Part shown: piece after piece, positions 12,789 to 47,719 of the stretch
How the letters are laid out: every line of letters starts with the position of its first letter
Numbering within the stretch: the first letter of the stretch is position 1
The notes under the pieces: model-generated
What the model was told of the DNA's origin: nothing
What the model saw: only the letters and a program-made list of their open reading frames with translations
The model's database searches: none
Translations under genes and position numbers: made by a program
Source: a virus
Lineage: Duplodnaviria > Heunggongvirae > Uroviricota > Caudoviricetes
IMG/VR virus record: IMGVR_UViG_2703718802_000011
Length of the DNA stretch: 48,734 nt
Reading direction: 5' to 3' (one strand)

Positions 12789-12834
12789 TTGGTGGAGCTG
12801 GCGGGAGTTGAACCCGCGTCCGAAATTCCTACAT
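12789..12834 (-). repeat. attR-type direct repeat: 46-bp copy of the ssrA 3' end
   Basis: 'ttggtggagctggcgggagttgaacccgcgtccgaaattcctacat' is identical to 47674-47719 and diverges immediately after. Confidence 0.85.
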
Positions 12835-12889
12835 ACTATTATTTAACTATCTAAATCATAGGTTTATTAATAGTATCAATGGGATAGTT

Positions 12890-13981
12890 TTAGACTGTGT
12901 TAGGCATTTTTACGTCGTTAAACTTCTTTGTCGCCATTTTGCCGCCACTGGAAGCTTTTATAACGTTAGGCTTTGTATATTTATCCCAGTGAGGAGAATA
13001 AATCGGACAATCAAGTGTAATATATTGATCAAAAAGAAATCTAAAGTCTGTTTCATATATGTAATTAATTATATGTTCATACGGACCTAATTCGGCACCA
13101 TAAATTATCGTTTTTATTTTTCTTGTTAGATATATACTTGCCTCAACGAATTCAAGAAAAGCATTTTCTTCGTGAGCAAAAGTAATAATACTGTATTCAT
13201 TGATCGATATTTTATATCTTGCCCGCATAATACTGTCGATACAGAGCTTTTCAAAAATCATGGCTGTTTTGTTAGAAACAGAATTTATTATTCTAAGGTA
13301 CTCCAGTGGTTTATTTTCTGGGGCCAGTTTCCTTGGTTTTAATGCGTTATCTATATCTCTAAGTAATACTTCTATTTCTTCTAGGAACTTGCTGCTTGGT
13401 TCGAAGTTAGATAGGCTGTGTGGGGCTGAGTTGGGGTATATTTTTTTATAGAGCAAGTAAGGATTTGTAATTTTAACTTGATCGGTAGTTGCTATTTTTT
13501 CATTATCAATTTCCTTGGACGAAATGATGCTTCCATCTTTGTTAGATAGATTTAAAATTGTGAAAGTAGATAAGTGGTTTATTTTTTCGATGAAGTTTTT
13601 TTCATGAGCCAAATATCTGTCAACGGCATTTTTGCTATCAACTGCTTGTATTTGTGCTTCGGTTTGAATTGTGCGATGAATATTGTTTACTATCGATGCG
13701 AGAGGAACGGAACTTGCTAGTAGCAATAAAGGAAACTTGCTGATCTCATAAAATCTAAAATATCCGTGAGCAGTGAGGACAGGTGTTTTTCCACTCCATG
13801 CAAAGTAACCAAAGTAAAAAAATGAAAAAACAGGAAGTAAAATCGATAACCAAAATAATTTTTGGCGGTATAGATTTCTTTTGTCTAACTTGTACCATCT
13901 TCTCCAAATGGAAATGATTAAAATTAATATAATTATTGTTGCATAAATATAAATGTATATATAGTCAGGATATGTTTTCAT
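12890..13981 (-). CDS. Membrane protein (N-terminal transmembrane helices), AT-rich moron translationally coupled to int
   Basis: 363 aa; hydrophobic N-terminus ('IIILILIISIW', 'LFWLSILLPVFSFFYFGYFAW'); ATG overlaps the int stop (ATGA at 13978-13981); strongly AT-rich compared with neighbouring phage genes. Confidence 0.5.
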   Translation of the reverse strand: MKTYPDYIYIYIYATIIILILIISIWRRWYKLDKRNLYRQKLFWLSILLPVFSFFYFGYFAWSGKTPVLTAHGYFRFYEISKFPLLLLASSVPLASIVNNIHRTIQTEAQIQAVDSKNAVDRYLAHEKNFIEKINHLSTFTILNLSNKDGSIISSKEIDNEKIATTDQVKITNPYLLYKKIYPNSAPHSLSNFEPSSKFLEEIEVLLRDIDNALKPRKLAPENKPLEYLRIINSVSNKTAMIFEKLCIDSIMRARYKISINEYSIITFAHEENAFLEFVEASIYLTRKIKTIIYGAELGPYEHIINYIYETDFRFLFDQYITLDCPIYSPHWDKYTKPNVIKASSGGKMATKKFNDVKMPNTV

Positions 13982-15000
13982 ACGTGATTTATACTATTTA
14001 GTGGGTTTTTGGTTACTGCATCTTCAAGATGTTCAGGGGAAAAATGTGCATATACCATGGTCATCTTGATATCTGAGTGACCCAATATATCTCTCAATAC
14101 TAGGATATTTCCGCCGTTCATCATAAAATGGCTGGCGAATGTATGGCGCAACACGTGAGTGCATTGGCCATCAGGTAGTTCGATACCGGCCCGTTTTACT
14201 GCACGCTCAAAGGCTTTTCTGCATGGTGTGAATAACTTCCCTCTGTTTTTGGGTAGCTCGTTGTACAGATCCTGAGATATCGGTACGGTGCGGTTTTTTT
14301 TACCCTTTGTCTTTGTATAGGTAATCCGGTATTTCGATAGTTGATGTCCCTGCAGGTTTTCAGCTTCACTCCAACGTGCACCAGTTGCTAGGCATATTTT
14401 TGCAATCATCAGCAGACTGGGGCTTTGAGAATCAGCACAGGCATCTAGCAGACGTTTAATTTCTTCCGGAGTCAAGAACGCCAGTTCACCTTCAGTAATT
14501 TTAAATGTTGGAAGCCCGGCAAGAGGGTTGGGGGCTGACCAGTGGCCCAGCTTTTTCAGTGTACCAAAAACCGATGATAGGTTGCGTTGTTCAAGATTTA
14601 CCGTGCGGGGCTTAACGGGCGACATTAGCGTGCCATCTTCATTTCGCACTTCACCTTTTAGCCGTGCTTCGCGGTATTTCGTAAAGTCACCGGCAGTCAG
14701 CTCTGAAGCGATGGGATCGCCTAGACCATTACAGATAATTCTAAGTTTCGCCATGAGGCGCTTGGGGTCTGCGAGTGTTTGACCATATAGGGAATACCAC
14801 AGCTCAATTAATTCTGATAGGCGTCTGCGATCTTCCTTTTCCCCCAACCATGGTTTTTTGTTCACTTCTTCCATTGTGAAGCTTTCAAAAGCAATGGCTT
14901 CGCCTTTTGTAGCAAATTGCTTACGTACGCGCTTGCCATTGCGTCCATTGGGATAGCACTCACACAACCATTTACCGTTTGGCTGTTTTCTGACAGTCAT
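13978..15000 (-). CDS. int: P2/186-type tyrosine integrase
   Basis: 340 aa (P2 Int is about 337), 'MTVRKQPNGKW...' N-terminus, C-terminal 'HVLRHTFASHFMMNGGNILVLRDILGHSDIKMTMVYAH' tyrosine-recombinase catalytic region. Confidence 0.85.
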   Translation of the reverse strand: MTVRKQPNGKWLCECYPNGRNGKRVRKQFATKGEAIAFESFTMEEVNKKPWLGEKEDRRRLSELIELWYSLYGQTLADPKRLMAKLRIICNGLGDPIASELTAGDFTKYREARLKGEVRNEDGTLMSPVKPRTVNLEQRNLSSVFGTLKKLGHWSAPNPLAGLPTFKITEGELAFLTPEEIKRLLDACADSQSPSLLMIAKICLATGARWSEAENLQGHQLSKYRITYTKTKGKKNRTVPISQDLYNELPKNRGKLFTPCRKAFERAVKRAGIELPDGQCTHVLRHTFASHFMMNGGNILVLRDILGHSDIKMTMVYAHFSPEHLEDAVTKNPLNSINHV

Positions 15001-15002
15001 GT

Positions 15003-15635
15003 TTAGATACTCTTTATTACTTTGACTGCGCGCCCAATAATTTCCACATCATCAGCAGAACACTCGAAAGACGCTTCATCTTGATTTACTACAATCTTAT
15101 TGCCGGGAATCCGCATGATTTTTGCAATAATAATCATTCCATCAATATTGATTAGCCAGAATCCATTGCTGACTTGTTTAACTGATTTATCGATGAGATA
15201 ACAATCAGTTGGGGTTTCTAAGAACATCGATTCTTCATAATGTGCAGGTAATATGCTGTGGTCTAGGAAAATATCTTCATCAATACTGAGTTTTCCATTC
15301 TCTAAGGTTCCTTTAGGAATAGATGGAGTTATGAGTTTGGATAGTGGTTTAATTGCTTGTTTGTTCTCATTATGAGATCTTTTCTCAGGCTCACATCCTC
15401 CTTTCATGCTTCCCTGGCCTGTAGCTAACCAAAGCAACGAAACACCGGTTTCTAGTGCGCACTGAATTATCCAGTCAGCAGGAAAACTGTCGCGTAACAC
15501 TCTGTTTGCCATAGTGCTTTTTGAGACATTCAGGTGCTCGCTTAATGCCTGCTTAGTTGTGAATCCATAAGCCTCAAGCAGCCTCTCAATAGCTGCCTTG
15601 CCTCCCGTATCGGAACCCATTCTGATGTTTAACAT
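15003..15635 (-). CDS. cI: CI-like immunity repressor (HTH)
   Basis: Divergent from apl/cII; HTH-like 'TKQALSEHLNVSKSTMANRVL'; likely start at ATG 15633-15635 with a GGAG RBS (track ORF extends to 15683); size about 210 aa, similar to 186 CI. Confidence 0.6.
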   Translation of the reverse strand: MLNIRMGSDTGGKAAIERLLEAYGFTTKQALSEHLNVSKSTMANRVLRDSFPADWIIQCALETGVSLLWLATGQGSMKGGCEPEKRSHNENKQAIKPLSKLITPSIPKGTLENGKLSIDEDIFLDHSILPAHYEESMFLETPTDCYLIDKSVKQVSNGFWLINIDGMIIIAKIMRIPGNKIVVNQDEASFECSADDVEIIGRAVKVIKSI

Positions 15636-15756
15636 TGGTAATCTCCATTTGACAATCTTGAGTCGAGATCGTAATGTCTTCATGTCTCTTGATGTGAGAG
15701 TTTAAGAGACGGACTAAAACGAACTAACACGCACACAAAGTAAGAGATACTGCACT

Positions 15757-15999
15757 ATGAGTACTGATATTTCAATTCGTGTACCAAAAGAGATGGCTAC
15801 GCCTGCAGAGTTCGCAGAGTGGGAGGGCATTTCCCGTGGCTCTGTTTACCAAAAAATTCACCATGGCCAACTTGCTAAATACATGGTCAAGAAAGAAAAA
15901 AACAAAGGCCGCGTAAGCCTGCGTTATCTGATGTACAAAACCGATCAGGTCCGTGAATCCCTCGGTCATTCCAACTTCCGTGTCATTGTTGGTAAGTAA
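15757..15999 (+). CDS. apl: Apl/Cox-like excisionase and transcriptional regulator
   Basis: 80-aa first gene of the lytic operon, divergent from cI; HTH-like 'AEFAEWEGISRGSVYQKIH'. Confidence 0.55.
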   Translation: MSTDISIRVPKEMATPAEFAEWEGISRGSVYQKIHHGQLAKYMVKKEKNKGRVSLRYLMYKTDQVRESLGHSNFRVIVGK

Positions 16000-47040: not shown

Positions 47041-47047
47041 GAAAGAG

Positions 47048-47068
47048 AACCTGCTACGGCAGGTTTTT
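47048..47068 (+). terminator. Rho-independent terminator after ogr
   Basis: Stem aacctgc/gcaggtt with loop tacg, followed by TTTTTAT. Confidence 0.6.
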
Positions 47069-47551
47069 ATTCATCTGGGATCTCACCCGTTTCAAGAAAA
47101 TGTATAAAGCCAGGCTCATCTATGATGATTGTGCCTTTCATCCGGGCTGCCGATACTTTTGATGGGCCTGCATTGTAACCGCAACAGAGCATCTGAAGGC
47201 TTTGGGTTACAGAGGTTCTTACCGTTAATCCTTGTTCATTCGCCTTATCAACCAATCTTTCTTTATCTGCTTTCTTAAATCCGGTGAAACATACATCGAA
47301 TGTATTTTTTTTTTCGGACCAGACTGCTTGGTGAGATGTGAGTAGTTTTCGGGGAGGAATGACGCGCACTCCTGAATGGCTTGTTCTGGTGAATCGTACT
47401 GTTTAAGAATGCGGTCTTTTCGGAAGGTTTTTATTCGATCGGTGTTCTTACAAATGCCCTGTATATGATTTTCGCTATAACTGATGCTCTGTATAGAGTG
47501 AACACCGATACGACCATTTGCATTGATGTAAACAAAGTGAAGTTCTTCCAT
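47067..47551 (-). pseudogene. BRCT-domain cargo gene interrupted by a frameshift in an A10 homopolymer
   Basis: Two overlapping minus-strand ORFs (47225-47551 and 47067-47369) change frame exactly at the T10/A10 run 47305-47314; the downstream part 'VCFTGFKKADKERLVDKANEQGLTVRTSVTQSLQMLCCGYNAGPSKVSAARMKGTIIIDEPGF' matches the BRCT pattern. Confidence 0.55.
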
Positions 47552-47630
47552 GTGAAACCTCTTTGCATGATTTCAAGATGGCGACAGGCAAGATGGACGC
47601 AAAAGTCTGTCGCCATTTTGCCGCCACTAC

Positions 47631-47664
47631 CAAAGAAAAAGGGGCTACGCTTTCACGTAACCCC
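47631..47664 (-). terminator. Rho-independent terminator immediately downstream of ssrA (phage-provided)
   Basis: Stem ggggctacg/cgtaacccc (one mismatch) followed on the minus strand by CTTTTTCTTT; starts about 10 nt after the tmRNA 3' end. Confidence 0.55.
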
Positions 47665-47673
47665 TTGATTTAT

Positions 47674-47719
47674 TTGGTGGAGCTGGCGGGAGTTGAACCC
47701 GCGTCCGAAATTCCTACAT
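47674..47719 (-). repeat. attL-type direct repeat (ssrA 3' end, part of the intact gene)
   Basis: Identical to 12789-12834. Confidence 0.85.

Follow-up and report, generated by a model that had tools for sequence, protein, structure and literature searches.

The gene for transfer-messenger RNA (tmRNA), ssrA, is the most enriched target of integrative elements (PMC4383910, PMC7192596). In both papers, passages that cite Williams 2003 describe tandem arrays at this gene and at transfer RNA genes (tDNAs). The phages Fels-2 and SopEPhi integrate into ssrA, according to the part of PMC3448106 that cites Pelludat 2003. Long cores that restore the tRNA-like end, and arm repeats of the 186 type, have also been published already (PMC3448106). 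When the ssrA-adjacent island CP4-57 is excised in K-12, ssrA loses U357, tmRNA is inactivated and ribosome rescue switches to ArfA (PMC10107115). Here, we analysed a stretch of 48,734 nucleotides (nt), IMG/VR record IMGVR_UViG_2703718802_000011, which we call the window. Its DNA is that of E. coli, with flanks 99.5-99.8% identical to many strains, and it holds an intact ssrA, a Fels-2-type prophage and the ssrA-proximal part of an island with a P4-family integrase. Our data make it very probable that the prophage and the island are two independent integrative elements standing in tandem at the 3' end of ssrA.

Repeats and attachment sites at ssrA

The locus has the following parts (positions in the window; strands are given where recorded; att, attachment; ORF, open reading frame; aa, amino acids).

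1..11117: island, ssrA-proximal 11 kb, running off the left end of the window (Pfam; GC content)
11394..12767, minus strand: island integrase, P4 family, maximal ORF (Pfam Arm-DNA-bind_3, Phage_int_M and Phage_integrase)
12789..12834: displaced 46-bp ssrA 3' fragment, the int-side att copy of the prophage (exact repeat; same junction in 300709 and DETEC-S566)
12835..47673: prophage, unique part, Fels-2-type Peduoviridae (repeat spacing 34,885)
13978-15000, minus strand: phage tyrosine integrase (Int), Fels-2 type (Pfam Int_N, the arm-binding domain, and Phage_integrase)
47674..47719: 46-bp att core, ssrA-proximal copy, junction beside the ogr end (exact repeat; same 46-mer in Cartapus and Fels-2)
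47675..48037, minus strand: ssrA (tmRNA gene), intact, its last 45 nt inside the att core copy (ARAGORN, Rfam, K-12 identity)
48252..48734, minus strand: smpB, core gene upstream of ssrA (Pfam SmpB, E 1.5e-57)

The 46-mer TTGGTGGAGCTGGCGGGAGTTGAACCCGCGTCCGAAATTCCTACAT occurs as two exact copies in the window, both on the plus strand and without a mismatch between them. None of 100 dinucleotide-preserving shuffles, used as the chance control, gave a match. With a repeat finder the identity reaches 49 nt with one mismatch (ACT at 12835-12837 versus CCT at 47720-47722), and no additional decayed copy of the first 20 nt of the 46-mer was found in the window at up to 3 mismatches. ARAGORN and Rfam agree on a full-length tmRNA gene at the right copy, with the tag ANDENYALAA and a match to RF00023 of 295.8 bits over model positions 1-374 of 374. 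Therefore, the right repeat consists of the final 45 nt of ssrA and one downstream base. The window gene is identical to K-12 ssrA at 363/363 positions, so that the target gene is regenerated and intact, as tandem arrays are defined by Islander and by Williams. The gene smpB is annotated at the homologous position in NCTC9100, 300709 and DETEC-S566. An earlier note on this stretch had described the repeat, its identity with the 3' end of an intact tmRNA gene, a terminator followed by a P4-type integrase beyond the displaced copy, and a P2/186-like phage between the copies, and on all of these it agrees with what we find. It had also placed the phage integrase at the end distal to ssrA; this is correct for the end, but the gene does not lie directly at the att site, since an ORF of 363 aa (12890-13981) intervenes.

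The attP of the prophage can be followed across both junctions, where these sites and terminators lie.

12727..12760, minus strand: island-supplied terminator, orphaned in the window (terminator-like site)
12929..12947, plus strand: paired arm-type sites for Int in the P' arm, TGTCGCCA and TGCCGCCA (same motif pair as in the P arm)
47578..47626, plus strand: arm-type sites for Int in the P arm, namely TGTCGCCA (47608), TGCCGCCA (47619) and, inverted, TGGCGACA (47578) (match to the 186-type consensus)
47639..47666, minus strand: phage-supplied intrinsic terminator directly after the regenerated ssrA (12-pair stem, then T-run)

Near both ends of the prophage, a 21-nt direct repeat (12929-12949 and 47608-47628) is made of two tandem TGYCGCCA copies with 11-nt spacing; the published consensus for 186-type Int arm sites is tgccGCCActt (PMC3448106). 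The paired pattern is present at only two places in the window (47608-47626 and 12929-12947), with 0 expected. Measured from the core start, the pairs lie at -66/-55 in the P arm and at +140/+151 in the P' arm, and these offsets are common to the window, the free phage Cartapus, strain 300709 and Fels-2. The spacing of the P' sites is kept in all four although the neighbouring P' sequence has diverged. The inverted copy lies at -95 in the window, Cartapus and 300709, and was not found at that offset in Fels-2, which has the -66/-55 pair. We joined the prophage ends in silico and searched phage genomes with the joined attP. In Cartapus, the P arm runs without a break into the identical 46-bp core and on into the beginning of the P' arm; this stretch lies in the middle of the genome, between the ORF on the ogr side and a cargo gene followed by int. 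In the Fels-2 record, each end is annotated as one half of attP, and joining the ends gives the identical 46-mer. The attP core is thus the ssrA 3' end, and it is contiguous in free phage DNA (Cartapus, and Fels-2 once its ends are joined). Core and arm sites together have the architecture expected of a functional attP, here apparently split into two junctions.

Each element carries its own terminator for ssrA. The terminator of the phage folds at -21 kcal/mol (z -3.1). That of the island, a hairpin AAGCCCGCA...UGCGGGCUU followed by U6, folds at -22.6 kcal/mol (z -3.3); its flank is found identically next to the intact ssrA of NCTC9100, and it terminates ssrA in strains that have the island only.

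Separate occurrence and order of arrival

The earlier note had proposed to compare genomes carrying one or both elements. This comparison, once run, gave the island alone in NCTC9100, the prophage alone in DETEC-S566 and both in 300709. At least 80% of the island is present, at 99.9-100% identity, in 55 complete genomes of E. coli. Among the 60 complete genomes with the best island matches, 38 have a single ssrA-3' copy and hence the island only, a count that takes "places per record" as a proxy for a second ssrA fragment and was checked by inspection in three genomes only. When 12835-47719 is deleted in silico, the remaining DNA (window 1-12834 plus 47720-48734) aligns with NCTC9100 in one high-scoring segment pair of 13,850 columns at 99.97% identity; the two sequences differ by one substitution and two small indels, all away from the junction. 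Therefore, the prophage is a base-precise insertion. In DETEC-S566, where the island is missing, a prophage stands between ssrA and the native flank. It shares the cargo ORF and both 46-bp junctions with the prophage of the window, and 6.1 kb at its left end align at 99.5% identity. In 300709, the same island accompanies another Fels-2-like prophage, which is partly deleted and carries an anti-phage deoxycytidine triphosphate (dCTP) deaminase as its cargo between int and att. Since the parts occur separately in these strains, with precise junctions, the two regions are inherited independently, and not as the single element that, according to the earlier note, would have refuted its reading. 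An assembly duplication was considered and rejected, because the same junctions recur in independent complete genomes.

Each member of the tandem has its own integrase gene (13978-15000 in the phage, 11394-12767 in the island), and the two integrases belong to different families without significant similarity (E 0.5). The phage Int is 92.6% identical to the Int of Fels-2, 96.1% to that of Cartapus and 94.7% to that of 300709. The island integrase passes NCBIfam PRK09692 (444.6 bits against a cutoff of 434) and is 48.6% identical to K-12 IntA and 47.6% to the integrase of a P4-like satellite. Its RefSeq homologue, WP_001384082.1, has 409 aa, which would correspond to 11394-12623. The prophage also has its own displaced ssrA fragment in the orientation of the gene, at 12789-12834; for the island, whose distal fragment falls beyond the window, the corresponding 14-nt fragment was read in NCTC9100 and K-12.

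The window does not reach the far end of the island. In NCTC9100, the island extends ~8 kb past the part in the window, to a relaxase gene, and ends beside ypjA at a T-less ssrA fragment of 14 nt, CGCCAGCCCACCA (CGCCAGC-CCACCA, the last 14 nt without T357). From this distal end we deduce the att core of the island as CGCCAGC(T)CCACCA; the first ~15 nt of the displaced fragment at 12789-12834 double as its ssrA-side copy. Neither exact k-mers of at least 12 nt nor blastn-short revealed a direct repeat of the 3' end of ssrA in NCTC9100, because the fragment is only 14 nt long and lacks one base. It was recognised when the junction near ypjA was read and set against psaA of K-12. The distal junction in NCTC9100 (L001, 10300-10340) is the same as that of CP4-57 at psaA in K-12 (L007, 23440-23500), with the same fragment and the same flank. 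Different islands thus appear to share or inherit one slot, despite the 48.6% identity of their integrases and unrelated cargo.

In the mechanism that we propose, the inner element (12789/12835-47719) is a temperate phage, complete and belonging to the Fels-2/186 branch of the P2 family, with an attP made of the 46-bp core, a P arm with two direct and one inverted arm-type site, and a P' arm with two direct ones. Phage Int would have recombined this attP with an intact ssrA. The recombination would have regenerated a perfect ssrA, now placed before a phage-borne terminator, and would have pushed the old 46-bp 3' end and everything downstream of it 34.9 kb away. Downstream there would have been an island already in residence, whose integrase is of the P4 family, whose att core is short and lies at the very 3' end of ssrA, and whose cargo is defence-like and for mobilisation. 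Either element may still be able to excise.

This order, with the island first and the phage second, is favoured and probable, and unproven. The same island, with the identical integrase WP_001384082.1, is distal to ssrA in all three arrays inspected in other strains, the remaining arrays being placed by match-end classes and place counts. With this integrase accession it is found behind inner elements of three unrelated kinds, namely Fels-2-like phages that differ in cargo, a P4-like satellite (match-end class n=12, one genome inspected) and, in P13-6, a lambdoid remnant (match-end class n=2, one genome inspected). An earlier arrival of the island is more parsimonious because the same island stands distal behind these three kinds of element. 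It is also favoured because a phage that needs the full 46-bp site finds only the intact ssrA in an island-bearing strain.

Several points weigh against this reading. The two 46-bp copies are identical and the crossover point is invisible; the crossover therefore leaves no trace, and the order of arrival is unreadable from sequence. The displaced fragment and its flank would still present the island integrase with a whole short core; the distal end of the island is seen only in NCTC9100 and K-12, outside the window; and the count of island-only genomes depends on the proxy described above. Excision products are beyond the reach of sequence alone. Lastly, there are three frameshifting indels, one of them in the prophage; either full functionality is not guaranteed or these are small assembly errors. 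The claim of the earlier note that the island came first and the phage followed at the same site thus holds for two elements at ssrA, with island-first the more parsimonious order, and stays unproven for the order itself.

The reverse order, which the earlier note had given as its alternative, would have a Fels-2-type phage enter an empty ssrA first and the island integrate afterwards into the displaced 46-bp fragment at the int-side end. It is mechanistically possible. The island core of ~14-15 nt at the extreme 3' end of ssrA lies wholly within the 46-bp fragment, and therefore a later-arriving island could in principle use the displaced copy. Lysogens that have only the phage, with the 46-bp fragment beside the native flank, do exist (e.g., DETEC-S566), and a second element may enter either regenerated core (PMC7192596). 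However, the island with the same integrase allele stands directly at the intact ssrA in most carriers. The reverse order would need repeated entries of the island, each time into the distal copy, behind three unrelated kinds of element. Moreover, the identity of the island across the 55 genomes is 99.9-100%, in contrast to the prophages beside it, which diverge by ~5% in sequence and do not carry the same cargo. We therefore regard this order as unlikely.

There is a similarly small chance that another strain supplied the array already assembled, the smpB-ssrA-ypjA region having entered by transduction or conjugation and homologous recombination. Chromosomal segments are frequently exchanged in E. 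coli, arrays of the same island and a Fels-2-like phage are found in several unrelated-looking isolates, and a similar array is present in Klebsiella. No feature of the window speaks against such an import, but it changes the place where integration happened, not the structure or the origin of the array, and fits two independent elements and either order of arrival. That everything from the island to ssrA forms a single composite element, moving and inherited as a unit, is highly improbable: its parts are adjacent, share orientation and ssrA-derived sequence, and their outermost att copies could in principle recombine and excise both together, but the comparative data already contradict it, as each part occurs alone with precise junctions, each has an integrase of a family of its own, the parts differ sharply in GC content, and free phage genomes carry attP without island DNA.

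Gene content of the prophage and the island

With one core copy, the phage genome comprises 34,885 bp. In the first 24 kb of the prophage, 70-72% matches P2-family phage records at 89-96% identity. Its gene order is that of a full P2-family phage of the 186/Fels-2 branch and agrees gene by gene with the annotated prophage of DETEC-S566.

12890..13981, minus strand: 363-aa low-GC cargo ORF between int and the att site (phrog_17460, function unknown)
15003..22181: 186-type early region (Pfam, PHROGs, DETEC-S566 annotation)
15003-15683, minus strand: cI repressor (Pfam Phage_CI_repr and Phage_CI_C)
15757-15999, strand not stated: apl/cox excisionase (phrog_6912/575)
16032-16541, strand not stated: cII (CII/Fil annotated in the homologous DETEC-S566 prophage)
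19758-22181, strand not stated: replication gene A (Phage_GPA, 9e-127)
22500..26340: variable cargo block, gpA-gpQ hotspot (PADLOC, Pfam)
23110-24078, minus strand: unknown 322-aa ORF in the gpA-gpQ hotspot (ORF)
24687-25601, strand not stated: PDC-M03A (PADLOC, 2e-122)
25598-26338, strand not stated: PDC-M03B (PADLOC, 3e-93)
26373..47040: P2-type late region (PHROGs, E 1e-145 to 1e-210; RefSeq annotation of the homologous prophage)
26373-27413, minus strand: portal (PHROGs)
27410-29176, minus strand: terminase (PHROGs)
30169-31227, strand not stated: capsid (PHROGs)
39916-41088, strand not stated: sheath (PHROGs)
42097-45174, strand not stated: tape measure (PHROGs)
45653-46753, strand not stated: gpD (PHROGs)
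46822-47040, strand not stated: ogr (PHROGs)
47067..47551, minus strand: small accessory ORF beside the right repeat, split (phrog_2561; 160 aa in relatives)

The genetic switch is of the 186 type (CI, Apl/Cox, CII) and not the C/Cox switch of P2. By PHROGs and Pfam, the structural, packaging and lysis module of the P2 type and the gpA replication gene are present and collinear with the annotated prophage; the late genes also include those for lysis, baseplate, tail fibre and tube. The gene set of the phage is complete, with the excisionase included. The accessory ORF at 47067-47551, which is named a BRCT-domain protein, a "DNA ligase" or an "exonuclease" depending on the source, is broken by a T10-versus-T8 run at 47305-47306. 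In the tail-fibre gene (37619-39349), a direct repeat of 239 nt (38120-38358 and 38600-38838; 70% identity, spacing 480 nt) is probably an internal duplication of a fibre domain. At least part of the right end of the phage is present in 822 of 5426 genomes, and it is contiguous with ssrA in 165 of the 171 E. coli genomes that carry that end.

P2-like phages have a cargo hotspot between gpA and gpQ and a minor one between int and att (PMC13586616), and the prophage carries cargo at both. The 363-aa ORF in the minor slot has ~31% GC. It gave no match in Pfam, NCBIfam or PADLOC. Its 96 homologue clusters are from Enterobacterales only and all "hypothetical". An AlphaFold2 (AF2) model of the protein has a pLDDT (predicted local distance difference test) of 82 and N-terminal hydrophobic helices, and a search with it gave no informative structural neighbour in the PDB. 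The last ~18 codons of the ORF, which encode a disordered and poorly modelled tail, cross the P'-arm sites of Int, codons 345-351 overlapping 12929-12949. In Pectobacterium, a 48%-identical homologue is chromosomal and adjoins an Acyl_transf_3 gene. In Klebsiella, a homologue lies in the same slot, followed by a second gene of 397 aa. On that contig (L013, 3985-8981), the Fels-2-type int, the cargo homologue and the second gene are found with an identical 46-bp core and a P4-family integrase island, which carries a retron Ec48-type gene. In the major slot, PDC-M03A/B is a two-gene candidate system of PADLOC, with a HipA-like kinase fold and a HIRAN-domain protein (the Pfam matches to HipA_C and HIRAN are weak). 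The block at 22500-26340 is not shared with the otherwise collinear prophages of DETEC-S566 and 300709.

The island has a GC content of 31-39%, as against 55-60% for the late region of the phage. The genes identified in its window part, beyond the integrase, are these.

610-1563, minus strand: ankyrin-repeat protein gene (Pfam)
3703-5819, strand not stated: NACHT NTPase, split (Pfam)
5819-6724, strand not stated: RelA/SpoT-domain gene (Pfam)
7777-8672, minus strand: ParB-like gene, split (Pfam)
8669-9565, minus strand: ParB-like gene (Pfam)
9555-11117, minus strand: large serine recombinase (Pfam)

The cargo is partly defence-like: a NACHT NTPase with an N-terminal inactive restriction-endonuclease domain, a RelA/SpoT-domain protein encoded directly after it, and an ankyrin-repeat protein. 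A second recombinase, the large serine one, and two ParB/RepB-like genes adjoin the tyrosine integrase. Compared with near-identical genomes, small indels split three genes of the window: NACHT (+TA, 4758-4759), the ParB-like gene (-1 nt, 8173) and the phage accessory ORF (47305-47306). These three frameshifts are either real pseudogenisation or small assembly errors. In P13-6, the native flank ccttacaccgtccaatcatga is directly downstream of the intact ssrA (L006, about 20280-20321), but the stretch from that flank to the island is occupied by restriction-modification genes and by the remnant of a lambdoid prophage, which carries DarTG. Genuine P4-like satellites use ssrA in other E. coli strains. 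We asked whether the island could be a P4-like satellite of the P2-family phage beside it. The idea was rejected for want of satellite core genes: psu, delta, sid and the alpha primase-helicase are absent from its part in the window and from its continuation in NCTC9100 (alpA was outside this test).

Significance and comparison with known systems

The main value of this analysis is a correct annotation. A complete Fels-2-type prophage and its att sites are delimited to the base, and the region with the P4 integrase is a separate island, neither a part of the phage nor a satellite, with its greater age favoured and unproven. The locus is a clean example of successive elements piling up at ssrA and brings no new principle. 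Possible further interest lies in the uncharacterised cargo genes and in a possible uncoupling of island excision from tmRNA integrity. By analogy with CP4-57, and given the same T-less end in island-only relatives, excision of the island from an island-only strain should likewise remove U357 and switch ribosome rescue to ArfA. It is conceivable, if rather doubtful, that the prophage insulates tmRNA from such an island-driven switch, as island excision would then alter only the orphaned 46-bp fragment.

The closest known phages are Fels-2 and SopEPhi, P2/186-like Salmonella phages of the genus Felsduovirus, and Escherichia phage Cartapus (Peduoviridae, Elveevirus). The window phage has the 46-bp attP core, the arm motif and the arm distances in common with Fels-2 and Cartapus, as well as the layout ogr - attP - int - cI - apl - cII ... 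A - Q/P - late genes. It differs from this group of phages by its E. coli host, and from Fels-2 and Cartapus by its cargo. Between int and att, it has the 363-aa gene where Fels-2 has none, Cartapus a RES-domain gene and the 300709 prophage the anti-phage dCTP deaminase; between gpA and gpQ, it has the PDC-M03 candidate.

For the island, the nearest counterpart is CP4-57 of K-12 (ssrA-intA ... psaA-ypjA). Both have a P4-family integrase downstream of ssrA in the same orientation, and the T357-less ssrA fragment and flank at the end of the island in NCTC9100 are those found at K-12 psaA. Their cargo is different, namely alpA, rnlAB and abpAB in CP4-57 versus the serine recombinase, ParB-like, NACHT, RelA/SpoT and relaxase genes in the island. 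CP4-57 is immediately downstream of ssrA, whereas the window island is parted from it by the prophage. The pairing of a P4-family integrase with a P2-family prophage resembles that of a P4-like satellite with its P2-like helper, except that the island is without satellite core genes. Finally, the tandem arrays of Islander, of TIGER and of Williams 2003 ("Traffic at the tmRNA gene"), as far as the citing passages describe them, have for each member its own integrase and its own gene-oriented tDNA fragment, with the gene regenerated and the members also found apart from one another in other genomes. The window does not differ from them in principle. It is a well-formed instance of an already known, ordinary and well-documented kind of arrangement, one more tandem array with its own specific pair of members.

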